Part shown: one piece after another, positions 1 through 56,548 of the stretch
Numbering within the stretch: the stretch's first letter is position 1
Layout of the letters: every line of letters starts with the position of its first letter
Source of the DNA: Leucoraja ocellata
Lineage: Eukaryota
DNA length: 64,000 nucleotides
Direction of reading: 5' to 3'
Assembly: GCA_036785375.1 (NCBI GenBank)
Contig: JAWMAR010000116.1
Location: forward strand, 2,046,001-2,110,000
The notes under the pieces: generated by a model
The model's input: the letters and a program-made list of their open reading frames with translations, nothing else
What the model was told of the DNA's origin: nothing
The model's database searches: none
Made by a program: the position numbers and the translations under genes

Positions 1-1
1 A

Positions 2-19400: not shown

Positions 19401-22400
19401 CTTCTACAGAAGGGACCACATTCCAAACTACAACAGGAGAGGCCATGTCCCAATCAACAGCAGTAGTGACCGCATCACAAAATACTGCACCAGAGATCAC
19501 ATCTGTAACTACTACAGGAGAGACAATGTCCCATACTGCCGCAGCTGAGATCACCTCCCAAACTATTGCAGTAGAGATGATGTCCCAAATTACAACAGTG
19601 GAGTCCCAGTCACAAAGTACAACAAGAGAGACTACAGTGCATACTACTGCAGGAGAGACTACATTCAGAATTAATGCTGGAGAGATCACGGTCCATTCTA
19701 TTGGAGGAGAGACAACATCACAAACTGGTGCTGGAGAGATGGCATCTGAAACTACTACAGGAGAGACCATGTCCCAAACGCCTGACGGAGAAATCACATC
19801 CATGACCACAGAAGGAGAGACCACATCCCAACGTACAACAGGACAGACATCGTCCCAAACTACCGTGGGGGTGATCATATCCCGAACTACTGAAGGAGTG
19901 AAAACATCCCAAACTATCAAAGAAGAGAGCTTGTCTCAAACTACAACAGGACAGACGATATCCCAAAATACTGCAGGAGATACAACGGCCGAAACTTCTG
20001 CCGCGGGGAACGCCGCACAAACTTCTGCAGGAGAGACAAGGATAAAAACTACCACAGGAGAGATCATGTCTCCAACTACTGCAGAAGAGACTACATCACG
20101 AACTATTGAAGTAGAGACCATGTCCCAATCCACAACAGGAAAAATAATTTCCCAAAGTAATGCAGAGGATACCATGTCCAAAACTACCATAGGAGAGACC
20201 GCGTCCCAAACTAATGCAAGAGATACCATATCCCCAAGTACAATAGGGGAGATGATGTCTCAATCTACTATAGGAGAGACCACAACCCAAACAATTGCAC
20301 CCGTGACTACGGCCCAAGCTACTGCAGGAGTGCTGACATCTGAAATTACTACAGCAGAGACAATGTCCCAAACTAGTTCAGTAGCGACAACATCCCAACC
20401 TACTGCAGAACATACCATGTTCCAATCTTCTACTGAAGAGACCACATTCCAAACTACAGCAGGACAGATCATGTCCCAATCTACTGCAGTAGAGACCGCA
20501 TCCCAGAATACTGCACCAGAAATCACATCTGAAACTATTACAGGAGAGACAATGTCCCAAACTGACACAGGTGAGACCATGACACAAACTATTGCAGCAG
20601 AGATGATGTCACAAAGTAGAACAGTGGAGACACAGTTTCAAAGTACATCAAGAGAGACCACATTCCAAACTACAATTGGAAAGACCATGTCCCAATCAAC
20701 AGCAGTAGATGCACCAGAGATCACTTCTGAAACTACTGCAGGAGAGACCATGTCCCAGAGAACAGCAGGAGAGACAACGTCTCAATCTACTACAGGAGAG
20801 TCCACGTCCAGAGCAAATGCAGGAGAGAGCACGGTCCAATCAACTGGAGGGGAGACAACATCTCAAACTACTGCTGGTGACATGACATTAAAAACTACTA
20901 CAAGAGAGACAATGTCACAAACTCCTTCAGGAGAAACGCCATCTATAACTACTGAAGAAAAGACCACATCTCAACCTACAACAGGACAGACATCGTCCCA
21001 AACTACCGCAGGAGAGATCATATCCCAAACTTCTGAAGGTGCGATAACATCCCAAACTATCACAGAAGAGAGCTTGTCTCAAACTACAATAAGACAGACG
21101 ATATCCCAAATTACTGCAGGAGAGAGAACGGCCGAAACTACTGCAGCAGAGAACACCGCCCAAACTTCTGCAGGAGAGACAACGATAAAAGCTACTACAG
21201 GAGAGATCATGTCTCCAACTACTGCAGAAGAGACTACATCACGAACTATTGAAGTAGAGACCATGTCCCAATCTACAACAGGAAAAATAATTTCCCAAAG
21301 TACTGAAGAAGAAAGCACATCTAAAATTACCACAGGAGAGACCGCATCCCAAACTACTACAGGAGAGACCATGTCCGTAATTACAACAGGGGAGATGATG
21401 TTTCAATCTACTACAGGAGAGACCACAACCCAAACAATTGCACCCGTGACTACGGCCCAAGCTACTGCAGGAGTGCTGACATCTGAAATTACTACAGCAG
21501 AGACAATGTCCCAAACTAGTTCAGTAGTGACAACATCCCAACCTACTGCAGAACAGACCATGTTCCAATCTTCTACTGAAGAGGCCACATTCCAAACTAC
21601 AACAGGAGAGACCATGTCGCAATCTACAGCAGTAGAGACCGCATCCCAAAATACTGCACCAGAGATTACATCTGAAACTACTACAGGAGAGACAATGTCC
21701 CAAACTGCCACAGGTGTGACCATCTCTCAAACTATTGCAGAAGAGATGATGTCCCAAAGTACAACAGTGGAGACTCAGTCCCAAAAGACATCAAATGAGA
21801 CTACAGTGCAAACTACTGCAGGAGAGACCATGTCCCAGAGAACAGCAGGAGAGACAACGGCTCAATTTACTATAGGAGAGTCCACGTCCAGAGCAAATGC
21901 AGGAGAGAGCACGGTCCAATCAACTGGAGGTGAGAGAACATCTCAAACTACTGCTGGTGACAAGACATCCAAAACTACTACAAGAGAGACAATGTCCCAA
22001 ACTCCTGCAGGAGAAACCACATCTATACTTACTGAAGGAGAGAACACATCTCAACCTACAACAGGACAGACATTGTCCCAAACTACTGCAGGAGAGACCA
22101 TGTCCCAGAGTACAACAGGAGAGATGATGTCTCAATCTATCACAGGAGAGACCATGACCCAAACAATTGCACCAGTGACATCAGCCCAAGCTACTACAGA
22201 GGAGCTGACATCTGAAACTATTTCAGTAGTGACAATATCCCAAACTCCTGTAGAACAGACCATGTTCCAATCTTCAACTGAAGAGATCACATTCAAAACT
22301 ACAACAGGAGAGACTATGTCCCAATCTACAGCAGTAGAGACCACATCCCAAAATACTGCACCTGCGATCACATCTGAATCTACTACAGGAGAGACAATGT

Positions 22401-25400
22401 CCCTAACTGCCATAGGTGAGACCACCTCCCAAACTATTGCAGTAGAGATGATCTCCCAAAGTACAACAGTGGAGACTCAGTCCCAAAGTACATCTAGAGA
22501 GACCACAGTGCATACTACTGCTGGAGAGACAACGTCCAGTATTAATGCAGGAGAGAGCACGGCCCATTCTACTGGAGGAGAGACAACATCACAAACTAGT
22601 GCTGGAGAGATGGCTTCTGAAATTACTATAGGAGAGACAATGTCCCAAACTCCAGCAGGAGAAATCATATCCATAACCACAGAAGGAGAGACCACATCCC
22701 AACGTACAACACGGCAGATATCGTTTCAAACTACGGCAGGAGAGATCATATCCCAAACTTCTGAAGGTGCGACAACATCCCAAACTATCACAGAAGAGAG
22801 CTTGTCTCAAACTACAATAGGGCAGACGATATCCCAAATTACTGCAGGAGAGACAACGACCGAAACTACTGCAGCAGAGAACACCGCCCAAACTTCTGCA
22901 GGAGAGACAACGATAAAAACTACTACAGGAGAGATCGTGTCTCCAACTACTGCAGAAGTGACTACATCACGAACTATTGAAGTAGAGACCATGTCCCAAT
23001 CTACAACAGGAAAAATAATTTCGCAAAGTACTGAAGGAGAAAGCACATCTAAAATTACCATAGGAGAGACCGCGTCCCAAACTACTACAGGAGAGACCAT
23101 GTCCGTAATTGCAACAGGGGAGATGATGTCTCAATCTACTATAGGAGAGACCACAACCCAAACAATTGCACCCGTGACTACGGCCCAAGCTACTGCAGGA
23201 GTGCTGACATCTGAAATTACTACAGCAGAGACAATGTCCCAAACTAGTTCAGTAGTGACAACATCCCAACCTACTGCAGAACAGACCATGTTCCAATCTT
23301 CTACTGAAGAGACCACATTCCAAACTACAACAGGAAAGGCCATGTCGCAATCTACAGCAGTAGAGACCGCATCCCAAAATACTGCACCAGAGATTGCATC
23401 TGAAACTACTACAGAAGAGACAATGTCCCAAACTGCCACAGGTGTGACCATCTCTCAAACTATTGCAGTAGAGATGATGTCCCAAAGTACAACAGTGGAG
23501 ACTCAGTCCCAAAAGACATCAAGAGAGACTACAGTGCAAACTACTGCAGGAGAGACCATGTCCCAGAGAACAGCAGGAGAGACAACGGCTCAATCTACTA
23601 CAGGAGAGTCCACGTCCAGAGCAAATGCAGGAGAGAGCACGGTCCAATCAACTGGAGGTGAGAGAACATCTCAAACTACTGCTGGTGACAAGACATCCAA
23701 AACTACTACAAGAGAGACAATGTCCCAAACTCCTGCAGGAGAAACCACATCTATACCTACTGAAGGAGAGACCACATCTCAACCTACAACAGGACAGACA
23801 TTGTCCCAAACTACTGCAGGAGAGACCATGTCCCAGAGTACAACAGGAGAGATGATGTCTCAATCTATCACAGGAGAGACCACGACCCAAACAATTGCAC
23901 CAGTGACATCAGCCCAAGCTACTACAGAGGAGCTGACATCTGAAACTATTTCAGTAGTGACAATATCCCAAACTCCTGTAGAACAGACCATGTTCCAATC
24001 TTCAACTGAAGAGATCACATTCAAAACTACAACAGGAGAGACTATGTCCCAATCTACAGCAGTAGAGACCACATCCCAAAATACTGCACCTGAGATCTCA
24101 TCTGAATCTACTACAGGAGAGACAATGTCCCTAACTGCCATAGGTGAGACCACCTCCCAAACTATTGCAGTAGAGATGATCTCCCAAAGTACAACAGTGG
24201 AGACTCAGTCCCAAAGTACATCAAGAGAGACTACAGTGCATACTACTGCTGGAGAGACAACGTCCAGTATTAATGCAGGAGAGAGCACGGCCCATTCTAC
24301 TGGAGGAGAGACAACATCACAAACTAGTGCTGGAGAGATGGCTTCTGAAATTACTATAGGAGAGACAATGTCCCAAACTCCAGCAGGAGAAATCACATCC
24401 ATAACCACAGAAGGAGAGACCACATCCCAACGTACAACACGGCAGATATCGTTTCAAACTACGGCAGGAGAGATCATATCCCAAACTTCTGAAGGTGCGA
24501 CAACATCCCAAACTATCACAGAAGAGAGCTTGTCTCAAACTACAATAGGACAGACGATATCCCAAATTACTGCAGGAGAGACAACGGCCGAAACGACTGC
24601 AGCAGAGAACACTGCCCAAACTTCTGCAGGAGAGACAACGATAAAAACTACTACAGGAGAGATCGTGTCTCCAACTACTGCAGAAGTGACTACATCACGA
24701 ACTATTGAAGTAGAGACCATGTCCCAATCTACAACAGGAAAAATAATTTCGCAAAGTACTGAAGGAGAAAGCACATATAAAATTACCATAGGAGAGACCG
24801 CGTCCCAAACTACTACAGGAGAGACCATGTCCGTAATTACAACAGGGGAGATGATGTCTCATTCTACTACAGGAGAGACCACAACCCAAACAATTGCACC
24901 CGTGACTACGGCCCAAGCTACTGCAGGAGTGCTGACATCTGAAATTACTACAGCAGAGACAATGTCCCAAACTAGTTCAGTAGTGACAACATCCGAACCT
25001 AGTGCAGAACAGACCATGTTCCAATCTTCTACTGAAGAGACCACATTCAAAACTACAACAGGAGAGACTATGTCCCAATCTACAGCAGTAGAGACAACAT
25101 CCCAAAATACTGCACCTGCGATCACATCTGAATCTACTACAGGAGAGACAATGTCCCTAACTGCCACAGGTGTGACCATCTCTCAAACTATTGTAGTAGA
25201 GATGATGTCACAAAGTACAACAGTGGAGACTCAGTCCCAAAAGACATCAAGAGAGACTACAGTGCAAACAACTGCAGGAGAGACCATGTCCCAGAGAACA
25301 GCAGGAGAGACAACGGCTCAATCTACTACAGGAGAGTCCACGTCCAGAGCAAATGCAGGAGAGAGCACGGTCCAATCAACTGGAGGTGAGAGAACATCTC

Positions 25401-28400
25401 AAACTACTGCTGGTGACAAGACATCCAAAACTACTACAAGAGAGACAATGTCCCAAACTCCTGCAGGAGAAACCACATCTATACCTACTGAAGGAGAGAA
25501 CACATCTCAACCTACAACAGGACAGACATTGTCCCAAACTACTGCAGGAGAGACCATGTCCCAGAGTACAACAGGAGAGATGATGTCTCAATCTATCACA
25601 GGAGAGACCATGACCCAAACAATTGCACCAGTGACATCAGCCCAAGCTACTACAGAGGAGCTGACATCTGAAACTATTTCAGTAGTGACAATATCCCAAA
25701 CTCCTGTAGAACAGACCATGTTCCAATCTTCAACTGAAGAGATCACATTCAAAACTACAACAGGAGAGACTATGTCCCAATCTACAGCAGTAGAGACCAC
25801 ATCCCAAAATACTGCACCTGCGATCACATCTGAATCTACTACAGGAGAGACAATGTCCCTAACTGCCATAGGTGAGACCACCTCCCAAACTATTGCAGTA
25901 GAGATGATCTCCCAAAGTACAACAGTGGAGACTCAGTCCCAAAGTACATCTAGAGAGACCACAGTGCATACTACTGCTGGAGAGACAACGTCCAGTATTA
26001 ATGCAGGAGAGAGCACGGCCCATTCTACTGGAGGAGAGACAACATCACAAACTAGTGCTGGAGAGATGGCTTCTGAAATTACTATAGGAGAGACAATGTC
26101 CCAAACTCCAGCAGGAGAAATCACATCCATAACCACAGAAGGAGAGACCACATCCCAACGTACAACACGGCAGATATCGTTTCAAACTACGGCAGGAGAG
26201 ATCATATCCCAAACTTCTGAAGGTGCGACAACATCCCAAACTATCACAGAAGAGAGCTTGTCTCAAACTACAATAGGACAGACGATATCCCAAATTACTG
26301 CAGGAGAGACAACGGCCGAAACGACTGCAGCAGAGAACACTGCCCAAACTTCTGCAGGAGAGACAACGATAAAAACTACTACAGGAGAGATCGTGTCTCC
26401 AACTACTGCAGAAGTGACTACATCACGAACTATTGAAGTAGAGACCATGTCCCAATCTACAACAGGAAAAATAATTTCGCAAAGTACTGAAGGAGAAAGC
26501 ACATCTAAAATTACCATAGGAGAGACCGCGTCCCAAACTACTACAGGAGAGACCATGTCCGTAATTACAACAGGGGAGATGATGTCTCAATCTACTACAG
26601 GAGAGACCACAACCCAAACAATTGCACCCGTGACTACGGCCCAAGCTACTGCAGGAGTGCTGACATCTGAAATTACTACAGCAGAGACAATGTCCCAAAC
26701 TAGTTCAGTAGTGACAACATCCGAACCTACTGCAGAACAGACCATGTTCCAATCTTCTACTGAAGAGACCACATTCAAAACTACAACAGGAGAGACTATG
26801 TCCCAATCTACAGCAGTAGAGACAACATCCCAAAATACTGCACCTGCGATCACATCTGAATCTACTACAGGAGAGACAATGTCCCAAACTGCCACAGGTG
26901 TGACCATCTCTCAAACTATTGTAGTAGAGATGATGTCACAAAGTACAACAGTGGAGACTCAGTCCCAAAAGACATCAAGAGAGACTACAGTGCAAACAAC
27001 TGCAGGAGAGACCATGTCCCAGAGAACAGCAGGAGAGACAACGGCTCAATCTACTACAGGAGAGTCCACGTCCAGAGCAAATGCAGGAGAGAGCACGGTC
27101 CAATCAACTGGAGGTGAGAGAACATCTCAAACTACTGCTGGTGACAAGACATCCAAAACTACTACAAGAGAGACAATGTCCCAAACTCCTGCAGGAGAAA
27201 CCACATCTATACCTACTGAAGGAGAGAACACATCTCAACCTACAACAGGACAGACATTGTCCCAAACTACTGCAGGAGAGACCATGTCCCAGAGTACAAC
27301 AGGAGAGATGATGTCTCAATCTATCACAGGAGAGACCATGACCCAAACAATTGCACCAGTGACATCAGCCCAAGCTACTACAGAGGAGCTGACATCTGAA
27401 ACTATTTCAGTAGTGACAATATCCCAAACTCCTGTAGAACAGACCATGTTCCAATCTTCAACTGAAGAGATCACATTCAAAACTACAACAGGAGAGACTA
27501 TGTCCCAATCTACAGCAGTAGAGACCACATCCCAAAATACTGCACCTGCGATCACATCTGAATCTACTACAGGAGAGACAATGTCCCTAACTGCCATAGG
27601 TGAGACCACCTCCCAAACTATTGCAGTAGAGATGATCTCCCAAAGTACAACAGTGGAGACTCAGTCCCAAAGTACATCTAGAGAGACCACAGTGCATACT
27701 ACTGCTGGAGAGACAACGTCCAGTATTAATGCAGGAGAGAGCACGGCCCATTCTACTGGAGGAGAGACAACATCACAAACTAGTGCTGGAGAGATGGCTT
27801 CTGAAATTACTATAGGAGAGACAATGTCCCAAACTCCAGCAGGAGAAATCACATCCATAACCACAGAAGGAGAGACCACATCCCAACGTACAACACGGCA
27901 GATATCGTTTCAAACTACGGCAGGAGAGATCATATCCCAAACTTCTGAAGGTGCGACAACATCCCAAACTATCACAGAAGAGAGCTTGTCTCAAACTACA
28001 ATAGGACAGACGATATCCCAAATTACTGCAGGAGAGACAACGGCCGAAACGACTGCAGCAGAGAACACTGCCCAAACTTCTGCAGGAGAGACAACGATAA
28101 AAACTACTACAGGAGAGATCGTGTCTCCAACTACTGCAGAAGTGACTACATCACGAACTATTGAAGTAGAGACCATGTCCCAATCTACAACAGGAAAAAT
28201 AATTTCGCAAAGTACTGAAGGAGAAAGCACATCTAAAATTACCATAGGAGAGACCGCGTCCCAAACTACTACAGGAGAGACCATGTCCGTAATTACAACA
28301 GGGGAGATGATGTCTCAATCTACTACAGGAGAGACCACAACCCAAACAATTGCACCCGTGACTACGGCCCAAGCTACTGCAGGAGTGCTGACATCTGAAA

Positions 28401-31400
28401 TTACTACAGCAGAGACAATGTCCCAAACTAGTTCAGTAGTGACAACATCCCAACCTACTGCAGAACAGACCATGTTCCAATCTTCTACTGAAGAGACCAC
28501 ATTCCAAACTACAACAGGAAAGGCCATGTCGCAATCTACAGCAGTAGAGACCGCATCCCAAAATACTGCACCAGAGATTGCATCTGAAACTACTACAGAA
28601 GAGACAATGTCCCAAACTGCCACAGGTGTGACCATCTCTCAAACTATTGCAGTAGCGATGATGTCCCAAAGTACAACAGTGGAGACTCAGTCCCAAAAGA
28701 CATCAAGAGAGACTACAGTGCAAACTACTGCAGGAGAGACCATGTCCCAGAGAACAGCAGGAGAGACAACGGCTCAATCTATTACAGGAGAGTCCGCATC
28801 CAGAGCAAATGCAGGAGAGAGCACGGTCCAATCAACTGGAGGTGAGAGAACATCTCAAACTACTGCTGGTGACAAGACATCCAAAACTACTACAAGAGAG
28901 ACAATGTCCCAAACTCCTGCAGGAGAAACCACATCTATACCTACTGAAGGAGAGACCACATCTCAACCTACAACAGGACAGACATTGTCCCAAACTACTG
29001 CAGGAGAGACCATGTCCCAGAGTACAACAGGAGAGATGATGTCTCAATCTATCACAGGAGAGACCACGACCCAAACAATTGCACCAGTGACATCAGCCCA
29101 AGCTACTACAGAGGAGCTGACATCTGAAACTATTTCAGTAGTGACAATATCCCAAACTCCTGTAGAACAGACCATGTTCCAATCTTCAACTGAAGAGATC
29201 ACATTCAAAACTACAACAGGAGAGACTATGTCCCAATCTACAGCAGTAGAGACCACATCCCAAAATACTGCACCTGAGATCTCATCTGAATCTACTACAG
29301 GAGAGACAATGTCCCTAACTGCCATAGGTGAGACCACCTCCCAAACTATTGCAGTAGAGATGATCTCCCAAAGTACAACAGTGGAGACTCAGTCCCAAAG
29401 TACATCAAGAGAGACTACAGTGCATACTACTGCTGGAGAGACAACGTCCAGTATTAATGCAGGAGAGAGCACGGCCCATTCTACTGGAGGAGAGACAACA
29501 TCACAAACTAGTGCTGGAGAGATGGCTTCTGAAATTACTATAGGAGAGACAATGTCCCAAACTCCAGCAGGAGAAATCACATCCATAACCACAGAAGGAG
29601 AGACCACATCCCAACGTACAACACGGCAGATATCGTTTCAAACTACGGCAGGAGAGATCATATCCCAAACTTCTGAAGGTGCGACAACATCCCAAACTAT
29701 CACAGAAGCGAGCTTGTCTCAAACTACAATAGGACAGACGATATCCCAAATTACTGCAGGAGAGACAACGGCCGAAACGACTGCAGCAGAGAACACTGCC
29801 CAAACTTCTGCAGGAGAGACAACGATAAAAACTACTACAGGAGAGATCGTGTCTCCAACTACTGCAGAAGTGACTACATCACGAACTATTGAAGTAGAGA
29901 CCATGTCCCAATCTACAACAGGAAAAATAATTTCGCAAAGTACTGAAGGAGAAAGCACATCTAAAATTACCATAGGAGAGACCGCGTCCCAAACTACTAC
30001 AGGAGAGACCATGTCCGTAATTACAACAGGGGAGATGATGTCTCAATCTACTACAGGAGAGACCACAACCCAAACAATTGCACCCGTGACTACGGCCCAA
30101 GCTACTGCAGGAGTGCTGACATCTGAAATTACTACAGCAGAGACAATGTCCCAAACTAGTTCAGTAGTGACAACATCCGAACCTAGTGCAGAACAGACCA
30201 TGTTCCAATCTTCTACTGAAGAGACCACATTCAAAACTACAACAGGAGAGACTATGTCCCAATCTACAGCAGTAGAGACAACATCCCAAAATACTGCACC
30301 TGCGATCACATCTGAATCTACTACAGGAGAGACAATGTCCCTAACTGCCACAGGTGTGACCATCTCTCAAACTATTGTAGTAGAGATGATGTCACAAAGT
30401 ACAACAGTGGAGACTCAGTCCCAAAAGACATCAAGAGAGACTACAGTGCAAACAACTGCAGGAGAGACCATGTCCCAGAGAACAGCAGGAGAGACAACGG
30501 CTCAATCTACTACAGGAGAGTCCACGTCCAGAGCAAATGCAGGAGAGAGCACGGTCCAATCAACTGGAGGTGAGAGAACATCTCAAACTACTGCTGGTGA
30601 CAAGACATCCAAAACTACTACAAGAGAGACAATGTCCCAAACTCCTGCAGGAGAAACCACATCTATACCTACTGAAGGAGAGAACACATCTCAACCTACA
30701 ACAGGACAGACATTGTCCCAAACTACTGCAGGAGAGACCATGTCCCAGAGTACAACAGGAGAGATGATGTCTCAATCTATCACAGGAGAGACCATGACCC
30801 AAACAATTGCACCAGTGACATCAGCCCAAGCTACTACAGAGGAGCTGACATCTGAAACTATTTCAGTAGTGACAATATCCCAAACTCCTGTAGAACAGAC
30901 CATGTTCCAATCTTCAACTGAAGAGATCACATTCAAAACTACAACAGGAGAGACTATGTCCCAATCTACAGCAGTAGAGACCACATCCCAAAATACTGCA
31001 CCTGAGATCTCATCTGAATCTACTACAGGAGAGACAATGTCCCTAACTGCCATAGGTGAGACCACCTCCCAAACTATTGCAGTAGAGATGATCTCCCAAA
31101 GTACAACAGTGGAGACTCAGTCCCAAAGTACATCAAGAGAGACTACAGTGCATACTACTGCTGGAGAGACAACGTCCAGTATTAATGCAGGAGAGAGCAC
31201 GGCCCATTCTACTGGAGGAGAGACAACATCACAAACTAGTGCTGGAGAGATGGCTTCTGAAATTACTATAGGAGAGACAATGTCCCAAACTCCAGCAGGA
31301 GAAATCACATCCATAACCACAGAAGGAGAGACCACATCCCAACGTACAACACGGCAGATATCGTTTCAAACTACGGCAGGAGAGATCATATCCCAAACTT

Positions 31401-34400
31401 CTGAAGGTGCGACAACATCCCAAACTATCACAGAAGAGAGCTTGTCTCAAACTACAATAGGACAGACGATATCCCAAATTACTGCAGGAGAGACAACGGC
31501 CGAAACGACTGCAGCAGAGAACACTGCCCAAACTTCTGCAGGAGAGACAACGATAAAAACTACTACAGGAGAGATCGTGTCTCCAACTACTGCAGAAGTG
31601 ACTACATCACGAACTATTGAAGTAGAGACCATGTCCCAATCTACAACAGGAAAAATAATTTCGCAAAGTACTGAAGGAGAAAGCACATCTAAAATTACCA
31701 TAGGAGAGACCGCGTCCCAAACTACTACAGGAGAGACCATGTCCGTAATTACAACAGGGGAGATGATGTCTCAATCTACTACAGGAGAGACCACAACCCA
31801 AACAATTGCACCCGTGACTACGGCCCAAGCTACTGCAGGAGTGCTGACATCTGAAATTACTACAGCAGAGACAATGTCCCAAACTAGTTCAGTAGTGACA
31901 ACATCCGAACCTAGTGCAGAACAGACCATGTTCCAATCTTCTACTGAAGAGACCACATTCAAAACTACAACAGGAGAGACTATGTCCCAATCTACAGCAG
32001 TAGAGACAACATCCCAAAATACTGCACCTGCGATCACATCTGAATCTACTACAGGAGAGACAATGTCCCTAACTGCCACAGGTGTGACCATCTCTCAAAC
32101 TATTGTAGTAGAGATGATGTCACAAAGTACAACAGTGGAGACTCAGTCCCAAAAGACATCAAGAGAGACTACAGTGCAAACAACTGCAGGAGAGACCATG
32201 TCCCAGAGAACAGCAGGAGAGACAACGGCTCAATCTACTACAGGAGAGTCCACGTCCAGAGCAAATGCAGGAGAGAGCACGGTCCAATCAACTGGAGGTG
32301 AGAGAACATCTCAAACTACTGCTGGTGACAAGACATCCAAAACTACTACAAGAGAGACAATGTCCCAAACTCCTGCAGGAGAAACCACATCTATACCTAC
32401 TGAAGGAGAGAACACATCTCAACCTACAACAGGACAGACATTGTCCCAAACTACTGCAGGAGAGACCATGTCCCAGAGTACAACAGGAGAGATGATGTCT
32501 CAATCTATCACAGGAGAGACCATGACCCAAACAATTGCACCAGTGACATCAGCCCAAGCTACTACAGAGGAGCTGACATCTGAAACTATTTCAGTAGTGA
32601 CAATATCCCAAACTCCTGTAGAACAGACCATGTTCCAATCTTCAACTGAAGAGACCACATTCAAAACTACAACAGGAGAGACTATGTCCCAATCTACAGC
32701 AGTAGAGACAACATCCCAAAATAATGCACCTGCGATCACATCTGAATCTACTACAGGAGAGACAATGTCCCTAACTGCCATAGGTGAGACCACCTCCCAA
32801 ACTATTGCAGTAGAGATGATCTCCCAAAGTACAACAGTGGAGACTCAGTCCCAAAGTACATCAAGAGAGACTACAGTACATACTACTGCAGGAGAGACAA
32901 CGTCCAGTATTAATGCAGGAGAGAGCACGGCCCATTCTACTGGAGGAGAGACAACATCACAAACTAGTGCTGGAGAGATGGCTTCTGAAATTACTATAGG
33001 AGAGACAATGTCCCAAACTCCAGCAGGAGAAATCACATCCATAACCACAGAAGGAGAGACCACATCCCAACGTACAACACGGCAGATATCGTTTCAAACT
33101 ACGGCAGGAGAGATCATATCCCAAACTTCTGAAGGTGCGACAACATCCCAAACTATCACAGAAGAGAGCTTGTCTCAAACTACAATAGGACAGACGATAT
33201 CCCAAATTACTGCAGGAGAGACAACGGCCGAAACGACTGCAGCAGAGAACACTGCCCAAACTTCTGCAGGAGAGACAACGATAAAAACTACTACAGGAGA
33301 GATCGTGTCTCCAACTACTGCAGAAGTGACTACATCACGAACTATTGAAGTAGAGACCATGTCCCAATCTACAACAGGAAAAATAATTTCGCAAAGTACT
33401 GAAGGAGAAAGCACATCTAAAATTACCATAGGAGAGACCGCGTCCCAAACTACTACAGGAGAGACCATGTCCGTAATTACAACAGGGGAGATGATGTCTC
33501 AATCTACTACAGGAGAGACCACAACCCAAACAATTGCACCCGTGACTACGGCCCAAGCTACTGCAGGAGTGCTGACATCTGAAATTACTACAGCAGAGAC
33601 AATGTCCCAAACTAGTTCAGTAGTGACAACATCCGAACCTAGTGCAGAACAGACCATGTTCCAATCTTCTACTGAAGAGACCACATTCAAAACTACAACA
33701 GGAGAGACTATGTCCCAATCTACAGCAGTAGAGACAACATCCCAAAATACTGCACCTGCGATCACATCTGAATCTACTACAGGAGAGACAATGTCCCTAA
33801 CTGCCACAGGTGTGACCATCTCTCAAACTATTGTAGTAGAGATGATGTCACAAAGTACAACAGTGGAGACTCAGTCCCAAAAGACATCAAGAGAGACTAC
33901 AGTGCAAACAACTGCAGGAGAGACCATGTCCCAGAGAACAGCAGGAGAGACAACGGCTCAATCTACTACAGGAGAGTCCACGTCCAGAGCAAATGCAGGA
34001 GAGAGCACGGTCCAATCAACTGGAGGTGAGAGAACATCTCAAACTACTGCTGGTGACAAGACATCCAAAACTACTACAAGAGAGACAATGTCCCAAACTC
34101 CTGCAGGAGAAACCACATCTATACCTACTGAAGGAGAGAACACATCTCAACCTACAACAGGACAGACATTGTCCCAAACTACTGCAGGAGAGACCATGTC
34201 CCAGAGTACAACAGGAGAGATGATGTCTCAATCTATCACAGGAGAGACCATGACCCAAACAATTGCACCAGTGACATCAGCCCAAGCTACTACAGAGGAG
34301 CTGACATCTGAAACTATTTCAGTAGTGACAATATCCCAAACTCCTGTAGAACAGACCATGTTCCAATCTTCAACTGAAGAGACCACATTCAAAACTACAA

Positions 34401-37400
34401 CAGGAGAGACTATGTCCCAATCTACAGCAGTAGAGACAACATCCCAAAATAATGCACCTGCGATCACATCTGAATCTACTACAGGAGAGACAATGTCCCT
34501 AACTGCCATAGGTGAGACCACCTCCCAAACTATTGCAGTAGAGATGATCTCCCAAAGTACAACAGTGGAGACTCAGTCCCAAAGTACATCAAGAGAGACT
34601 ACAGTACATACTACTGCAGGAGAGACAACGTCCAGTATTAATGCAGGAGAGAGCACGGCCCATTCTACTGGAGGAGAGACAACATCACAAACTAGTGCTG
34701 GAGAGATGGCTTCTGAAATTACTATAGGAGAGACAATGTCCCAAACTCCAGCAGGAGAAATCACATCCATAACCACAGAAGGAGAGACCACATCCCAACG
34801 TACAACACGGCAGATATCGTTTCAAACTACGGCAGGAGAGATCATATCCCAAACTTCTGAAGGTGCGACAACATCCCAAACTATCACAGAAGAGAGCTTG
34901 TCTCAAACTACAATAGGACAGACGATATCCCAAATTACTGCAGGAGAGACAACGGCCGAAACGACTGCAGCAGAGAACACTGCCCAAACTTCTGCAGGAG
35001 AGACAACGATAAAAACTACTACAGGAGAGATCGTGTCTCCAACTACTGCAGAAGTGACTACATCACGAACTATTGAAGTAGAGACCATGTCCCAATCTAC
35101 AACAGGAAAAATAATTTCGCAAAGTACTGAAGGAGAAAGCACATCTAAAACTACCATAGGAGAGACCGCGTCCCAAACTACTACAGGAGAGACCATGTCC
35201 GTAATTACAACAGGGGAGATGATGTCTCAATCTACTACAGGAGAGACCACAACCCAAACAATTGCACCCGTGACTACGGCCCAAGCTACTGCAGGAGTGC
35301 TGACATCTGAAATTACTACAGCAGAGACAATGTCCCAAACTAGTTCAGTAGTGACAACATCCCAACCTACTGCAGAACAGACCATGTTCCAATCTTCTAC
35401 TGAAGAGACCACATTCCAAACTACAACAGGAAAGGCCATGTCGCAATCTACAGCAGTAGAGACCGCATCCCAAAATACTGCACCAGAGATTGCATCTGAA
35501 ACTACTACAGAAGAGACAATGTCCCAAACTGCCACAGGTGTGACCATCTCTCAAACTATTGCAGTAGAGATGATGTCCCAAAGTACAACAGTGGAGACTC
35601 AGTCCCAAAAGACATCAAGAGAGACTACAGTGCAAACTACTGCAGGAGAGACCATGTCCCAGAGAACAGCAGGAGAGACAACGGCTCAATCTACTACAGG
35701 AGAGTCCACATCCAGAGCAAATGCAGGAGAGAGCACGGTCCAATCAACTGGAGGTGAGAGAACATCTCAAACTACTGCTGGTGACAAGACATCCAAAACT
35801 ACTACAAGAGAGACAATGTCCCAAACTCCTGCAGGAGAAACCACATCTATACCTACTGAAGGAGAGACCACATCTCAACCTACAACAGGACAGACATTGT
35901 CCCAAACTACTGCAGGAGAGACCATGTCCCAGAGTACAACAGGAGAGATGATGTCTCAATCTATCACAGGAGAGACCACGACCCAAACAATTGCACCAGT
36001 GACATCAGCCCAAGCTACTACAGAGGAGCTGACATCTGAAACTATTTCAGTAGTGACAATATCCCAAACTCCTGTAGAACAGACCATGTTCCAATCTTCA
36101 ACTGAAGAGATCACATTCAAAACTACAACAGGAGAGACTATGTCCCAATCTACAGCAGTAGAGACCACATCCCAAAATACTGCACCTGAGATCTCATCTG
36201 AATCTACTACAGGAGAGACAATGTCCCTAACTGCCATAGGTGAGACCACCTCCCAAACTATTGCAGTAGAGATGATCTCCCAAAGTACAACAGTGGAGAC
36301 TCAGTCCCAAAGTACATCAAGAGAGACTACAGTGCATACTACTGCTGGAGAGACAACGTCCAGTATTAATGCAGGAGAGAGCACGGCCCATTCTACTGGA
36401 GGAGAGACAACATCACAAACTAGTGCTGGAGAGATGGCTTCTGAAATTACTATAGGAGAGACAATGTCCCAAACTCCAGCAGGAGAAATCACATCCATAA
36501 CCACAGAAGGAGAGACCACATCCCAACGTACAACACGGCAGATATCGTTTCAAACTACGGCAGGAGAGATCATATCCCAAACTTCTGAAGGTGCGACAAC
36601 ATCCCAAACTATCACAGAAGAGAGCTTGTCTCAAACTACAATAGGACAGACGATATCCCAAATTACTGCAGGAGAGACAACGGCCGAAACGACTGCAGCA
36701 GAGAACACTGCCCAAACTTCTGCAGGAGAGACAACGATAAAAACTACTACAGGAGAGATCGTGTCTCCAACTACTGCAGAAGTGACTACATCACGAACTA
36801 TTGAAGTAGAGACCATGTCCCAATCTACAACAGGAAAAATAATTTTGCAAAGTACTGAAGGAGAAAGCACATCTAAAATTACCATAGGAGAGACCGCGTC
36901 CCAAACTACTACAGGAGAGACCATGTCCGTAATTACAACAGGGGAGATGATGTCTCAATCTACTACAGGAGAGACCACAACCCAAACAATTGCACCCGTG
37001 ACTACGGCCCAAGCTACTGCAGGAGTGCTGACATCTGAAATTACTACAGCAGAGACAATGTCCCAAACTAGTTCAGTAGTGACAACATCCGAACCTAGTG
37101 CAGAACAGACCATGTTCCAATCTTCTACTGAAGAGACCGCATTCAAAACTACAACAGGAGAGACTATGTCCCAATCTACAGCAGTAGAGACAACATCCCA
37201 AAATACTGCACCTGCGATCACATCTGAATCTACTACAGGAGAGACAATGTCCCTAACTGCCACAGGTGTGACCATCTCTCAAACTATTGTAGTAGAGATG
37301 ATGTCACAAAGTACAACAGTGGAGACTCAGTCCCAAAAGACATCAAGAGAGACTACAGTGCAAACAACTGCAGGAGAGACCATGTCCCAGAGAACAGCAG

Positions 37401-40400
37401 GAGAGACAACGGCTCAATCTACTACAGGAGAGTCCACGTCCAGAGCAAATGCAGGAGAGAGCACGGTCCAATCAACTGGAGGTGAGAGAACATCTCAAAC
37501 TACTGCTGGTGACAAGACATCCAAAACTACTACAAGAGAGACAATGTCCCAAACTCCTGCAGGAGAAACCACATCTATACCTACTGAAGGAGAGAACACA
37601 TCTCAACCTACAACAGGACAGACATTGTCCCAAACTACTGCAGGAGAGACCATGTCCCAGAGTACAACAGGAGAGATGATGTCTCAATCTATCACAGGAG
37701 AGACCATGACCCAAACAATTGCACCAGTGACATCAGCCCAAGCTACTACAGAGGAGCTGACATCTGAAACTATTTCAGTAGTGACAATATCCCAAACTCC
37801 TGTAGAACAGACCATGTTCCAATCTTCAACTGAAGAGATCACATTCAAAACTACAACAGGAGAGACTATGTCCCAATCTACAGCAGTAGAGACCACATCC
37901 CAAAATACTGCACCTGCGATCACATCTGAATCTACTACAGGAGAGACAATGTCCCTAACTGCCATAGGTGAGACCACCTCCCAAACTATTGCAGTAGAGA
38001 TGATCTCCCAAAGTACAACAGTGGAGACTCAGTCCCAAAGTACATCTAGAGAGACCACAGTGCATACTACTGCTGGAGAGACAACGTCCAGTATTAATGC
38101 AGGAGAGAGCACGGCCCATTCTACTGGAGGAGAGACAACATCACAAACTAGTGCTGGAGAGATGGCTTCTGAAATTACTATAGGAGAGACAATGTCCCAA
38201 ACTCCAGCAGGAGAAATCATATCCATAACCACAGAAGGAGAGACCACATCCCAACGTACAACACGGCAGATATCGTTTCAAACTACGGCAGGAGAGATCA
38301 TATCCCAAACTTCTGAAGGTGCGACAACATCCCAAACTATCACAGAAGAGAGCTTGTCTCAAACTACAATAGGGCAGACGATATCCCAAATTACTGCAGG
38401 AGAGACAACGACCGAAACTACTGCAGCAGAGAACACCGCACAAACTTCTGCAGGAGAGACAATGATAAAAACTACTACAGGAGAGATCGTGTCTCCAACT
38501 ACTGCAGAAGAGACTACATCACGAACTATTGAAGTAGAGACCATGTCCCAATCTACAACAGGAAAAATAATTTCGCAAAGTACTGAAGAAGAAAGCACAT
38601 CTAAAATTACCATAGGAGAGACCGCGTCCCAAACTACTGCAGGAGAGACCATGTCCGTAATTACAACAGGGGAGATGATGTTACAATCTACTACAGGAGA
38701 GACCACAACCCAAACAATTGCACCCGTGACTACGGCCCAAGCTACTGCAGGAGTGCTGACATCTGAAATTACTACAGCAGAGACAATGTCCCAAACTAGT
38801 TCAGTAGTGACAACATCCCAACCTACTGCAGAACAGACCATGTTCCAATCTTTTACTGAAGAGACCACATTCCAAACTACAACAGGAGGGGCCATGTCGC
38901 AATCTACAGCAGTAGAGACCGCATCCCAAAATACTGCACCAGAGATTGCATCTGAAACTACTACAGGAGAGACAATGTCCCAAACTGCCACAGGTGTGAC
39001 CATCTCTCAAACTATTGCAGTAGAGATGATGTCCCAAAGTACAACAGTGGAGACTCAGTCCCAAAATACATCAAGAGAGACTACAGTGCAAACTACTGCT
39101 GGAGAGACCATGTCCCAGAGAACAGCAGGAGAGACAACGGCTCAATCTACTGCAGGAGAGTCCATGTCCAGAGCAAATGCAGGAGAGAGCACGGTCCACT
39201 CAACTGGAGGTGAGAGAACATCTCAAACTACTGCTGGTGACAAGACATCCAAAACTACTACAAGAGAGACAATGTCCCAAACTCCTGCAGGAGAAACCAC
39301 ATCTATACTTACTGAAGGAGAAACCACATCTCAACCTACAACAGGACAGACATTGTCCCAAACTACTGCAGGAGAGACCATGTCCCAGAGTACAACAGGA
39401 GCGATGATGTCTCAATCTATCACAGGAGAGTCCATGACCCAAACAATTGTACCAGTGACATCAGCCCAAGCTACTACAGAGGAGCTGACATCTGAAACTA
39501 TTTCAGTAGTGACAATATCCCAAACTCCTGTAGAACAGACCATGTTCCAATCTTCAACTGAAGAGATCACATTCAAAACTACAACAGGAGAGACTATGTC
39601 CCAATCTACAGCAGTAGAGACCACATCCCAAAATACTGCATCTGAGATCACATCTGAATCTACTACAGGAGAGACAATGTCCCTAACTGCCATAGGTGAG
39701 ACCACCTCCCAAACTATTGCAGTAGAGATGATCTCCCAAAGTACAACAGTGGAGACTCAGTCCCAAAGTACATCAAGAGAGACTACAGTGCATACTACTG
39801 CAGGAGAGACAACGTCCAGTATTAATGCAGGAGAGAGCACGGCCCATTCTACTGGAGGAGAGACAACATCACAAACTAGTGCTGGAGAGATGGCTTCTGA
39901 AATTACTATAGGAGAGACAATGTCCCAAACTCCAGCAGGAGAAATCACATCCATAACCACAGAAGGAGAGACCACATCCCAACGTACAACATGGCAGATA
40001 TTGTTTCAAACTACAGCAGGAGAGATCATATCCCAAACTTCTGAAGTAGCGACAACATCCCAAACTATCACAGAAGAGAGCTTGTCTCAAACTACAAAAG
40101 GACAGACTATATCCCAAATTACTGCAGGAGAGACAATGGCCGAAACGACTGCAGCAGAGAACACCGCCCAAACTTCTGCAGGAGAGACAACGATAAAAAC
40201 TACTACAGGAGAGATCATGTCTCCAACTACTGCAGAAGAGACTACATCACGAACTATTGAAGTAGAGACCATGTCCCAATCTACAACAGGAAAAATAATG
40301 TCCCAAAGTACTGAAGAAGAAAGCACATCTAAAATTACCATAGGAGAGACCGCGTCCCAAACTACTGCAGGAGAGACCATGTCCGTAATTACAACAGGGG

Positions 40401-43400
40401 AGATGATGTTTCAATCTACTACAGGAGAGACCACAACCCAAACAATTGCACCCGTGACTACGGCCCAAGCTACTGCAGGAGTGCTGACATCTGAAATTAC
40501 TACAGCAGAGACAATGTCCCAAACTAGTTCAGTAGTGACAACAACCCAACCTACTGCAGAACAGACCATGTTCCAATCTTCTACTGAAGAGACCACATTC
40601 CAAACTACAACAGGAGAGGCCATGTCGCAATCTACAGCAGTAGAGACTGCATCCCAAAATACTGCACCAGAGATTGCATCTGAAACTACTACAGGAGAGA
40701 AAATGTCCCAAACTGCCACAGGTGTGACCATCTCTCAAACTATTGCAGTAGAGATGATGTCCCAAAGTACAACAGTGGAGACTCAGTCCCAAAAGTCATC
40801 AAGAGAGACTACAGTGAAAACAACTGCAGGAGAGACCATGTCCCAGAGAACAGCAGGAGAGACAACGGCTCAATCTACTACAGGAGAGTCCACGTCCAGA
40901 GCAAATGCAGGAGAGAGCACGGTCCAATCAACTGGAGGTGAGAGAACATCTCAAACTACTGCTGGTGACAAGACATCCAAAACTACTACAAGAGAGACAA
41001 TGTCCCAAACTCCTGCAGGAGAAACCACATCTATACCTACTGAAGGAGAGAACACATCTCAACCTACAACAGGACAGACATTGTCCCAAACTACTGCAGG
41101 AGAGACCATGTTCCAGAGTACAACAGGAGAGATGATGTCTCAATCTATCACAGGAGAGACCATGACCCAAACAATTGCACCAGTGACATCAGCCCAAGCT
41201 ACTACAGAGGAGCTGACATCTGAAACTATTTCAGTAGTGACAATATCCCAAACTCCTGTAGAACAGACCATGTTCCAATCTTCAACTGAAGAGATCACAT
41301 TCAAAACTACAACAGGAGAGACTATGTCCCAATCTACAGCAGTAGAGACCACATCCCAAAATAATGCACCTGCGATCACATCTGAATCTACTACAGGAGA
41401 GACAATGTCCCTAACTGCCATAGGTGAGACCACCTCCCAAACTATTGCAGTAGAGATGATCTCCCAAAGTACAACAGTGGAGACTCAGTCCCAAAGTACA
41501 TCAAGAGAGACCACAGTGCATACTACTGCTGGAGAGACAACGTCCAGTATTAAAGCAGGAGAGAGCACGGCCCATTCTACTGGTGGAGAGACAACATCAC
41601 AAACTAGTGCTGGAGAGATGGCTTCTGAAATTACTATAGGAGAGACAATGTCCCAAACTCCAGCAGGAGAAATCACATCCATAACCACGGAAGGAGAGAC
41701 CACATCCCAACGTACAACACGGCAGACATTGTTTCAAACTACAGCAGGAGAGATCATATCCCAAACTTCTGAAGGTGCAACAACATCCCAAACTATCACA
41801 GAAGAGAGCTTGTCTCAAACTACAATAGGACAGACGATATCCCAAATTACTGCAGGAGAGACAACGGCCGAAACTACTGCAGCAGAGAACACTGCCCAAA
41901 CTTCTGCAGGAGAGACAATGATAAAAACTACTACAGGAGAGATCGTGTCTCCAACTACTGCAGAACAGACTACATCACGAACTATTGAAGTAGAGACCTT
42001 GTCCCAATCTACAACAGGAAAAATAATTTCCCAAAGTACTGAAGAAGAAAGCACATCTAAAATTACCATAGGAGAGACCGCGTCCCAAACTACTGCAGGA
42101 GAGACCATGTCCGTAATTACAACAGGGGAGATGATGTTTCAATCTACTACAGGAGAGACCACATCCCAAACAATTGCACCCGTGACTACGGCCCAAGCTA
42201 CTGCAGGAGTGCTGACATCTGAAATTACTACAGCAGAGACAATGTCCCAAACTAGTTCAGTAGTGACAACATCCCAACCTACTGCAGAACAGACCATATT
42301 CCAATCTTCTACTGAAGAGACCACATTCCAAACTACAACAGGAGAGGCCATGTCGCAATCTACAGCAGTAGAGACCGCATCCCAAAATACTGCACCAGAG
42401 ATTTCATCTGAAACTACTACAGGAGAGACAATGTCCCAAACTGCCACAGGTGTGACCATCTCTCAAACTATTGCAGTAGAGATGATGTCCCAAAGTACAA
42501 CAGTGGAGACTCAGTCCCAAAGTACATCAAGAGAGACTACAGTGCATACTACTGCAGGAGAGACAACGTCCAGTATTAATGCAGGAGAGAGCACGGCCCA
42601 TTCTACTGGAGAAGAGACAACATCACAAACTAGTGCTGGAGAGATGGCTTCTGAAATTGCTATTGGAGAGACAATGTCCCAAACTCCAGCAGGAGAAATC
42701 ACATCCATAACCACGGAAGGAGAGACCACATCCCAACGTACAACACGGCAGACATTGTTTCAAACTACAGCAGGAGAGATCATATCCCAAACTTCTGAAG
42801 GTGCAACAACATCCCAAACTATCACAGAAGAGAGCTTGTCTCAAACTACAATAGGACAGACGATATCCCAAATTACTGCAGGAGAGACAACGGCCGAAAC
42901 TACTGCAGCAGAGAACACCGCCCAAACTTCTGCAGGAGAGACAATGATAAAAACTACTACAGGAGAGATCGTGTCTCCAACTACTGCAGAACAGACTACA
43001 TCACGAACTATTGAAGTAGAGACCTTGTCCCAATCTACAACAGGAAAAATAATTTCCCAAAGTACTGAAGAAGAAAGCACATCTAAAATTACCATAGGAG
43101 AGACCGCGTCCCAAACTACTGCAGGAGAGACCATGTCCGTAATTACAACAGGGGAGATGATGTTTCAATCTACTACAGGAGAGACCACATCCCAAACAAT
43201 TGCACCCGTGACTACGGCCCAAGCTACTGCAGGAGTGCTGACATCTGAAATTACTACAGCAGAGACAATGTCCCAAACTAGTTCAGTAGTGACAACATCC
43301 CAACCTACTGCAGAACAGACCATATTCCAATCTGCTACTGAAGAGACCACATTCCAAACTACAACAGGAGAGGCCATGTCGCAATCTACAGCAGTAGAGA

Positions 43401-49237: not shown

Positions 49238-49492
49238 TACCCGTGAAGTTAATTCGTGTGAATTTGATCAGAGTAAAAAGTGATGAAATTTCGATTTCCT
49301 GGGAAACGTCTTTAAATGTCAAAGTTGTTTATAACGCCACTCTCTTCATATCTGATGTTCAAATCTCCAGTTTTATGACATATAAGAAAAAGGCAATATT
49401 TAGAGATCTACAATTGGGTGTGCAATATCGAGTTGTTGTTACGGTGAGAACTTGCGATCAGCCACACATCATCCAGAGAACAATCATAACAA
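49238..49492 (+). CDS. Mucin exon: fibronectin type III-like domain
   Basis: ttttcag| acceptor and |gtaagt donor; 255 nt, phase 1-1. VPVKLIRVNLIRVKSDEISISW...VVYNATL...AIFRDLQLGVQYRVVVTVRTC fits the FN3 pattern (W, Y, L-x-x-G-x-x-Y). Confidence 0.85.
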
Positions 49493-55266: not shown

Positions 55267-55404
55267 AGAGAGACAGTTGTCAACCCGGGCTAAATGACTG
55301 TTCAGGTAATGGAACTTGTATCAGGCTGAATGCGTCCTATACCTGCCAATGCAATGTTGGGTTCGAAGATACAAGCTCTGACGTCCCGGGAAGAGTGTGT
55401 GAAG
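55267..55404 (+). CDS. Mucin exon: EGF-like domain 1
   Basis: ttacag| acceptor, |gtagga donor; 138 nt, phase 1-1. ERDSCQPGLNDCSGNGTCIRLNASYTCQCNVGFEDTSSDVPGRVCE has 6 Cys in EGF spacing. Confidence 0.92.
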
Positions 55405-55488: not shown

Positions 55489-55649
55489 ATGTTGATGAGT
55501 GTCAGACGGGAAACAACACGTGCTCTGAATTTGCCGCCTGCACCAATAACCCTGGCAATTTCTCATGCAGCTGTTTACAGGGAATTATAGATACCAATCC
55601 CGCAAACCCAGGAGCTGAACAGTTGAACCAGCGGCTGTGTGGACAGTAG
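55489..55649 (+). CDS. Mucin exon: Ca-binding EGF domain 2 (3' boundary unresolved)
   Basis: ttccag| acceptor after an 84-nt intron. DVDECQTGNNTCSEFAACTNNPGNFSCSCLQGIIDTNPANPG, then no strong phase-1 donor; reads on AEQLNQRLCGQ to TAG at 55647-55649. Confidence 0.8.
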
Positions 55650-56467: not shown

Positions 56468-56548
56468 ATCCAAATGCATGTTTTGTTAGTCAGAGAGATA
56501 CCTGTGCTTTATCTGACTGCTTGATGACTACAGTCAGTGACTGCAAAG
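56468..56548 (+). CDS. Mucin exon: short four-Cys linker
   Basis: ccacag| acceptor, AAAG|gtaagt donor; 81 nt, phase 1-1. DPNACFVSQRDTCALSDCLMTTVSDCK. Confidence 0.75.

Follow-up and report, generated by a model that had tools for sequence, protein, structure and literature searches.

A layered, in-frame higher-order repeat array in the giant PTS exon of a putative SEA-type membrane mucin

In alpha-satellite arrays, divergent monomers are packed into near-identical higher-order repeat (HOR) units with sharp transitions to divergent-HOR or monomeric flanks, and such arrays contain structural variants, younger interior haplotypes and the marks of unequal crossover and conversion (PMC9859433). 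Altemose et al. tie new layers to kinetochore sites, possibly causally, and expect mirror symmetry; in their account it is an open question whether centromeric layers need the kinetochore or originate neutrally, and similar patterns in non-centromeric satellites are already noted there (10.1101/2021.07.12.452052; PMC9859433). HORs also occur inside coding genes. Those of hornerin (a 'quartic HOR' on a 39-bp unit) and of NBPF/Olduvai (3-mer HORs) have been likened to alpha satellite (PMC9584774), and the spider MaSp1 aggregates, four ensembles iterated 20 times at 2.5% nucleotide difference, form a three-level hierarchy within one large exon under concerted evolution (PMC1885213, PMC9779670). 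Human MUC3A/B, MUC12 and MUC17, finally, combine one huge PTS exon having imperfect and perfect repeat zones with a SEA domain, a transmembrane segment and a short tail; the MUC3B exon measures 39,267 bp, MUC12 reaches up to 23,080 aa (PMC9578598, PMC13345508), and array edges are known to degenerate in about half of human mucin VNTRs (PMC13345508). Here we describe a locus, probably of a cartilaginous fish and seen in a window of 64,000 nucleotides, that resembles all of these systems in part (Table 1). With a probability of roughly four in five, we read it as the PTS exon of a SEA-type membrane mucin in whose O-glycosylated rod the nesting of repeats arose by successive homology-directed unequal exchange and gene conversion.

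Table 1. Positions of repeat layers and exons in the window
Feature	Position	Strand	Remarks
PTS (mucin-domain) coding stretch, probably one exon	1..47897	+	basis: unbroken frame
Oldest layer	1..4430	+	distinct, Pro-richer 9-aa monomer family; relic duplications
Monomeric layer of main 27-bp repeat	4430..9500	+	best matches near shuffled null
Relic block duplications	9500..15193	+	80-90% identical; lags 486, 1494, 2385, others
Divergent 40-monomer-family blocks	15194..21010	+	mostly 85-93% identical mutually and to core
Partial young unit, B-block tail, left junction	21011..21433	+	423 bp, 15 mismatches/423
Twelve 1728-bp, 64-monomer units	21434..42169	+	starts 21434+1728n; autocorrelation, ungapped alignment
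A block, unit 1	21434..22162	+	27 monomers (729 bp), 40-mer minus 13 monomers (351 bp)
B block, unit 1	22163..23161	+	37 monomers (999 bp), 40-mer minus 1 and minus 2 monomers (27, 54 bp)
B-to-A conversion tract, unit positions 160-269, shown in unit 3	25049..25158	+	diagnostic sites
Two 38-monomer (1026-bp) structural variants	42170..44221	+	A head joined to B tail
Divergent full 40-monomer block	44222..45301	+
Right flank, largely monomeric	45302..47160	+
Non-periodic Thr-rich tail of PTS exon	47161..47897	+	resembles same part of homologue P0001
FN3 exon, phase 1-1	49238..49492	+	Pfam fn3 E 0.0073, under curated cut-off; 58% to P0001
First SEA domain, two exons	52196-52308, 53034-53253	+	GSVNV motif
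EGF exon	55267..55404	+	Pfam EGF E 1.1e-06
Ca-binding EGF (EGF_CA) exon	55489..55649	+	Pfam EGF_CA E 2.4e-09
Short Cys-rich exon	56468..56548	+
Second SEA domain, two exons	58789-58904, 60842-61038	+	GSVQV motif; both frameshifted as assembled
Last exon: transmembrane helix, short tail ending YSSI	62134..62378	+

At the core of the locus, as a preliminary description had stated, the assembly holds twelve units of exactly 64 nonamer-encoding monomers; ungapped alignment of all twelve bears this out, each unit encoding 576 residues from 27-bp monomers, 63 of which are distinct. Lag 1728 gives the top autocorrelation peak, with identities of 0.97-1.00 per kb across 21-40 kb, against 0.61-0.64 at lag 27. 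Units differ from each other by 1-54 of 1728 bases (96.9-99.9% identical, mean 98.3%), or 0.06-3.1% over all 66 pairs, whereas neighbouring monomers within a unit are strongly different, with an identity of 0.63 in nucleotides (range 0.44-0.78) and 0.41 in amino acids. Both values lie within Willard-type definitions of an HOR (copies diverging by less than 5%, neighbouring monomers by about 20-40%); the 27-bp monomer in an open frame is distinct from the non-coding alpha satellite monomer of about 171 bp. The limits first given to the array, 21434 to 42169, were too narrow: they missed a partial unit on the left and two 38-monomer units on the right, with which the young array covers about 23 kb, from about 21011 to 44221.

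Each unit joins two diverged homologous blocks, A and B. The hexapeptide TIAPVT, reported to head both, is found at 23 of the 24 expected 729/999-bp steps (the second block of unit 11 opens with TIVPVT), and the blocks are 86-87% identical across 648 aligned bases. The gaps between core blocks are all whole monomers (27, 54 and 351 bp), and the 27- and 37-monomer blocks are deletion products of an older 40-monomer block. A 26+38 split, for which lags 702 and 1026 outrank 729 and 999, was rejected, because these lags stem from the A/B register within units and from the 38-monomer variants; between homologous block starts, the 27+37 split is correct.

Beyond the core, divergence does rise outward as had been proposed, but the rise is stepwise and lopsided, with several old blocks on the left and one on the right. 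Partial copies at 15194 and 16730 are followed by blocks of 40, 32, 38 and 42 monomers at 17324, 18404, 19265 and 20291; these four, occupying 17324-21433, and the 40-mer at 44222-45301 agree with the reported flank blocks of 32-42 monomers. The divergent blocks extend over about 6 kb on the left and 1.1 kb on the right, and the order of layers is alike on both sides; a relic-duplication layer comparable in size to the left one is absent from the right side. In a null-tested comparison, older layers lie outward, the median best match being 1.00 in the core, 0.91 in the flank blocks and 0.76-0.81 farther out. The outer sequence had been called monomeric. This holds at 4.4-9.5 kb but not at 9.5-15.2 kb, where relic block duplications are found: the share of 6-monomer windows with a match of 0.82 or better is 0-3% in the former stretch and 27-39% in the latter, against 0.3% in the shuffled null. 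In a tree, core tails form one clade (100/98), separate from the flank blocks. An A-like or B-like ancestry of the flank blocks is weakly supported (69/91).

Two 38-monomer recombinants, a conversion tract and an excess of private alleles in outer units add to what had been noted before. The recombinants begin at 42170 and 43196, are 98% identical to each other and switch from A to B between unit positions 318 and 353; the 34 bp in between, positions 319-352, are the longest stretch over which A and B match exactly. The conversion tract is present in six of the twelve units, all of them inner ones (3, 4, 6, 7, 8 and 10; type Y), which have the B base at 11/11 diagnostic sites within the tract and the A base at the flanking diagnostic sites; outer units and flanks have kept the A state in the tract. 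Three further units (2, 5 and 9; type X) are interleaved among the Y units, and such interleaving calls for multi-unit duplication or long conversion. Private alleles are concentrated in outer units 1, 11 and 12, which hold 42 of 53 (Spearman -0.69, p 0.013). As expected of a younger haplotype spreading from the middle, the derived, conversion-bearing type is confined to the interior, in an array of 12 units with interleaved types. We rejected a strict period of three units as a third order of repetition, since the X units lie at intervals of 3 and 4 and mean unit differences at lags 2-4 are alike (25.9, 23.4 and 23.4).

Could assembly, by expansion, haplotype switching or collapse, have distorted part of the copy number, or of the order in which unit types follow one another, in a real array? 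Just 1 base separates units 7 and 8 and 2 bases separate units 3 and 4, a gap of 156 N lies 60 bp past the end of the PTS exon, and small indels are in excess at 58-61 kb. Nevertheless, each of the 12 units can be told from the others, exact repeats at a unit lag reach at most 2,260 bp, which is within the span of long reads, and the 47.9-kb frame contains 0 frameshifts. Shared variants, moreover, nest within one another and belong with a coherent conversion tract, a pattern that errors would not produce. We consider such an artefact improbable.

The unbroken frame also suggests that the PTS stretch is probably a single exon. It is unclosed at the 5' window edge, the gene start lying upstream of the window, comprises at least 15,965 codons (about 48 kb) and ends at a phase-1 GT donor at 47898. 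Judged by the PMC1552070 criteria for mucin membership, it is a tandem-repeat PTS domain with 43% S+T over 15,965 aa, steady at 41-46% along the exon, 2 Cys and a low Pro content of 2.4%. Minus-strand ORFs across the array were set aside as by-products of the repeat. The preliminary view that expansion was constrained to stay in frame is upheld: net register shifts are multiples of 3 in 22 of 22 cases, and stop codons are absent from the Gln column (CAA 537, AAA 57, GAA 46, TAA 0) and from the Glu column (GAG 473, TAG 0). Among the twelve units, 70 alleles are nonsynonymous and 28 synonymous, with an omega of 0.90-1.05 that, at 98 alleles, is still compatible with mild selection; 0 of these young alleles is a stop (chance about 0.03). 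Between blocks, omega is 0.53-1.28, and several pairs, at 0.53-0.78, point to residues under weak purifying selection. What is purged, then, are stops and frameshifts; amino acids inside units are hardly constrained.

Downstream of the PTS exon, exons follow in the order FN3-SEA-EGF-EGF-SEA-TM. A HMMER search with the FN3 exon gave 11 matches, three of which (P0001-P0003, 533-833 aa) were analysed; these homologues match every downstream exon at 40-76% identity per exon and have the same FN3-SEA-EGF-EGF_CA-Cys-SEA-TM order, P0001 with a 38-aa duplication of its own. Single SEA exons score under the Pfam cut-off (E 0.011 and 0.018; one without a match), and the co-linear homologues pass it with E 7e-10 to 4e-14. 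P0001 and P0002, the homologues with a PTS part, show 9-aa periodicity above shuffles in parts of at most about 330 aa, possibly from truncated models. Word-indexed searches, as weak negatives, returned no homologue of the 576-aa unit among 7,998 scored proteins of 1,009-2,880 aa or among 443 of 5,481-17,441 aa, and none of the second exon of the first SEA domain among 30 candidates. A PDB search with P0001 yielded 20 matches, all of EGF type; SEA and mucin entries were not among them.

Three of these exons are damaged as assembled, which raises an alternative: the gene may recently have lost its membrane anchor or function, as a secreted form or a young pseudogene, leaving the array under relaxed constraint. 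The 3' end of the EGF_CA exon diverges from the homologues: their last Cys and the donor are missing, and the frame runs on to a stop. Both exons of the second SEA domain have frameshifts, and omega is about 1 in the youngest layer. On the other hand, the transmembrane exon is present and intact, and the second-SEA, Cys and transmembrane exons match P0001 at 61-76% identity, not below the 52-58% of the FN3 and first-SEA exons. Interspersed repeat copies near the 58-61 kb stretch carry the same excess of small indels, arguing for local base errors, and the EGF_CA exon, flanked by phase-1 junctions, could be skipped in frame. Given also the missing stops among young alleles, such a loss seems about as unlikely as the assembly artefact.

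Less probable still is that selection maintains the unit of 576 residues as a functional module, which might present glycans or binding sites periodically, as has been proposed for spidroin aggregates. Its exact length was kept over 12 units without indels, block pairs of low omega exist, and for MaSp1, Ayoub et al. propose that perfect repeats are selected for (PMC1885213). Against this, block length drifted freely (27, 32, 37, 38, 40 and 42 monomers), and the unit lacks Cys, matches nothing in Pfam and is composed like the flanks. Rather, the 64-mer looks like a recombination by-product, because dN/dS among units is about 1 despite the purging of stops and frameshifts. A centromere-associated satellite with layers driven by kinetochore binding, to which the architecture is similar, is very improbable in view of the 27-bp monomer, the single open frame with codon-level stop purging, the spliced mucin exons with homologues downstream and an array of just about 23 kb.

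How might the nesting in this putative mucin have come about? The sequence itself shows that an array of 27-bp monomers diverged; that a 40-monomer block was then duplicated, its copies diverging to 85-93%; that two of these copies lost whole monomers to become the 27- and 37-mers; and that the resulting pair was amplified 12 times. A conversion-marked variant later spread within the array interior, and a crossover between A and B blocks generated the 38-mers. Once monomers had diverged, recombination may have been limited to long near-identical periods, and the amplification unit would thereby grow while edge copies leave homogenisation. Selection would act on the glycan brush through its total length and its density of Ser/Thr, and the 64-mer period would be invisible to it. 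Unequal crossover, replication template switching and break-induced replication are indistinguishable by sequence alone.

Tentatively, and at somewhat less than even odds, we suggest that an undescribed mucin family of FN3-SEA-EGF-EGF-SEA type carries, in an exon of at least 48 kb, a miniature, kinetochore-free copy of the whole centromeric layered pattern, still turning over and polymorphic. If so, the locus would be a natural control with the frame as a built-in ruler, showing that recombination suffices to form such layers and that kinetochore selection is not needed. At 23 kb, the coding array is short enough for single reads, and exchanges can be mapped to the base, as has been shown above for a crossover and a conversion tract; codon structure, in addition, separates mutation from selection, which is impossible in non-coding satellites. 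The array makes a good model case. For mucin biology, it implies that a PTS rod can lengthen by 576-residue steps at fixed composition, and it draws attention to a mucin family and to an exon of very large size, probably truncated in gene models. In a search of mainly open literature, we found no publication on a mucin family of this type or on HOR layering in a mucin exon.

How far do the known systems anticipate this locus? Coding HORs, edge degeneration and exon size each have precedents, and our surprise is moderate for that reason; HORs within genes have been published for hornerin, NBPF and MaSp1, as has a larger mucin exon for MUC12, and the novelty is moderate as well. NBPF20 HOR copies differ by about 1.6%, as compared to 1.7% here, but NBPF monomers are of 1.6 kb with introns, and the mucin unit comprises 64 monomers; the hornerin/NBPF account, as far as it describes these arrays, has no outward age gradient, interior haplotypes or recombinant variants (PMC9584774). 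MaSp1 differs in its structural silk motifs and 9.4-kb exon, and its descriptions, in the parts at hand, include no series of older flanking layers (PMC1885213, PMC9779670). Compared to human membrane mucins, the FN3, two SEA and two EGF domains come in another order, the monomer has 9 aa and Pro is only 2%; for the human VNTRs, the portions of the sources considered describe no HOR decomposition (PMC9578598, PMC13345508). In alpha satellite, monomers are of 171 bp and units number hundreds to thousands (PMC9859433), as opposed to a codon-phased 27-bp monomer and 12 units here; the mucin array is asymmetric and coding, no transposon insertions are seen in its frame, and a kinetochore role is not expected. 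The preliminary description took the process to be the same as in alpha satellite. The architectural parallel proves closer than claimed, with monomeric, divergent-block and young-HOR layers, shortened variants and an interior derived haplotype in common, but sameness of process is an analogy for an asymmetric coding array of about 23 kb. By that analogy, the array works like alpha-satellite layered expansion without being a centromeric satellite. Nested re-amplification is known in a few other proteins, but this mucin exon is an unusually complete example.

Between 12 and 50 kb the strongest autocorrelation lag is 1,728 bp, and between 21 and 40 kb per-kilobase identity by autocorrelation is 0.97-1.00 at this lag, against about 0.62 at the 27-bp monomer lag. 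The twelve units align without gaps from the array start and differ at 1-54 of 1,728 bases, whereas adjacent monomers (64 of 27 bp per unit, 63 of them distinct) are only 63% identical. The preliminary description of nearly identical 64-monomer units with divergent neighbouring monomers is thus confirmed, well above chance expectation, and was a good one; its division into homologous blocks of 729 bp (A, 27 monomers) and 999 bp (B, 37 monomers) is correct at 23 of 24 motif starts, the blocks being 86-87% identical. Counting against this reading, units 7 and 8 differ at a single base, although no exact repeat at a unit lag is longer than 2,260 bp. By the quantitative definition of a higher-order repeat (HOR) cited in one study (PMC9584774), the array is an HOR.

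Features of the exon, its array and the downstream gene
Feature	Position	Strand	Remark
Giant exon	1-47897	+	at least 47.9 kb, no intron evident, probably a single exon; true start upstream of the window
Older 9-residue monomer family	1-4430		more Pro-rich; own relic duplications at lags 474, 2025, 2073
Left flank blocks (starts)	17324, 18404, 19265, 20291		40-monomer family
Twelve-unit array	21434..42169	+	
38-monomer units (starts)	42170, 43196		head from A, tail from B
Right flank block (start)	44222		40-monomer family
Splice donor of giant exon	47898	+	
Assembly gap	47957-48112		156 N, 60 bp into the intron behind the giant exon
SINE- and LINE-like repeats	48150-64000		many copies in introns and 3' flank; 0 within the 48-kb frame
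Low-complexity, AT-rich stretch	48252-48590		imperfect inverted self-match
Ca-EGF exon	55610-55680 (divergent 3' region)		stop at 55647-55649
Repeat copies beside second SEA	58.3-58.7 kb		
Second SEA, first exon	58789-58904		frameshifted
Second SEA, second exon	60842-61038		frameshifted
Tail end	62364-62378		YSSI; homologues YSNI or YSNL

Divergence rises outward, as had been proposed. By median best-match identity the core stands at 1.00, the 38-monomer units at 0.99, the flank blocks at 0.91, the stretch from 9 to 15.9 kb at 0.81, that from 4.4 to 9 kb at 0.76 and the initial 4.4 kb at 0.69. Transitions between layers are abrupt, and the two sides are unequal. Judged against shuffled monomer order, the claim that the flank then becomes monomeric holds for 4.4-9.5 kb but not for 9.5-15.2 kb, which carries relic duplications. 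By eye, the outermost monomers are closer than the main monomer to the repeats in the Ser/Thr-rich (PTS) part of one homologue (P0001).

How might the array have arisen? Blocks 17324 and 44222 have 40 monomers each and align colinearly; A corresponds to such a block minus 13 monomers and B to the same block minus one and two monomers, and wherever core blocks differ by a gap, its length is a multiple of 27 bp. In the 38-monomer units the switch from A to B maps to the longest exact A/B match, a 34-bp stretch between unit positions 318 and 353. Inner units fall into two types, X (2, 5, 9) and Y (3, 4, 6, 7, 8, 10), with 1-21 base differences within and 23-43 between types. Y units carry the B base at 11/11 diagnostic sites at positions 160-269, with A bases on either side, a conversion tract; because outer units and flank blocks retain the A state there, Y is derived. 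The interleaving of X and Y requires multi-unit duplication or long conversion; a strict three-unit period behind it is unsupported. Private alleles lie mostly in units 1, 11 and 12 (42 of 53). Flank block 19265 shares a 54-bp deletion with B, and two lineages may alternate among the flank blocks, one A-like (17324, 20291) and the other B-like (19265, 44222), with weak tree support, so that the A+B pairing may be older than the amplification.

Frame and composition are maintained while the sequence drifts. The array frame is a single plus-strand frame, open from the window start, and the proposed in-frame constraint is borne out: all 22 net register shifts between 4.4 and 47.2 kb are multiples of 3, although this largely restates the open frame and is not independent of it. 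Codons one base away from the commonest ones are abundant unless they are stops: beside CAA (537) stand AAA (57), GAA (46) and TAA (0), beside GAG (473) CAG (57), AAG (31) and TAG (0); with the flank blocks related to one another, these counts do not represent independent events. Alleles among the twelve units are nonsynonymous in 70 cases, synonymous in 28 and nonsense in none (omega 0.90-1.05; 0.53-1.28 across 21 block pairs), and Ser+Thr is steady along the exon at 41-46%.

The exon comprises at least 15,965 codons (Ser+Thr 43%, Pro 2.4%, two Cys); the ORF as listed runs on to 48142 by reading through the assembly gap. Downstream exons encode, in order, FN3, SEA, EGF, Ca-EGF, a Cys-rich piece, a second SEA and a transmembrane tail. 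With the FN3 exon as HMMER query, the best 3 of 11 matches share this domain order, with a counterpart for every exon, and a 9-residue periodicity is present in the two that include a PTS part (lag-9 identity 0.30 and 0.33, against at most 0.24-0.25 in 500 shuffles). Together these features predict a SEA-type membrane mucin, the 9-residue monomer being a family trait. Word-indexed searches, weak as negatives, returned no homologue for the second exon of the first SEA domain (30 candidates) or for the 576-residue unit among proteins of 1,009-2,880 (7,998 scored) and 5,481-17,441 residues (443 scored). The tail may end in a PDZ-binding motif, as in MUC3-cluster mucins. The interspersed repeats of the introns seem akin to SINEs and LINEs of sharks and rays.

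Alternatively, the gene may be secreted or recently damaged. In the Ca-EGF exon the final Cys and the donor of the homologues are missing and the frame meets a stop, and each of the two exons of the second SEA domain carries a frameshift. For the first of these two, local base errors or unpolished sequence are suggested by the neighbouring repeat copies, where 3-7 gaps open per 87-219 aligned bases, against none in about 80 for two pairs from this family located elsewhere; the second appears to use a GC donor. Such errors leave the Ca-EGF lesion unexplained. The Ca-EGF exon departs from 3/3 homologues past an NPANPG motif, with about 40 extra bases; the homologous position has no final Cys, and a canonical donor is absent. 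In-frame skipping of this exon is conceivable, as is a secreted form that ends there.

Most likely, recombination in a mucin VNTR produced the array as a by-product. We envision homology-dependent unequal exchange working on longer and longer periods as monomers diverge, with edge copies losing exchange partners and decaying; crossover and replication-based copying would both be compatible with the sequence. Selection would act on a rod that is long, intact and densely O-glycosylated. O-glycosylation and SEA cleavage of the product would follow from established mucin biology (PMC9578598).

The coding stretch exceeds the MUC3B PTS exon (39,267 bp; PMC9578598) and lies in the size range of long MUC12 alleles, up to 23,080 residues (PMC13345508), and about half of human mucin VNTRs are reported to degenerate at their edges (PMC13345508). 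HORs within genes are likewise described for hornerin and NBPF (PMC9584774) and MaSp1 (PMC1885213). A literature search covering few subscription journals found no account of this gene family, nor any mucin exon with a layered HOR; the array is an unusually complete example of a known phenomenon, useful as a small, kinetochore-free, base-resolvable model for layered expansion. The suggested identity with centromeric expansion holds in part: this array has the kinds of layer, the structural variants and the haplotypes confined to the interior that are described for alpha satellite (10.1101/2021.07.12.452052, PMC9859433). By analogy it behaves like an alpha-satellite array, but it does not belong to the alpha-satellite family.
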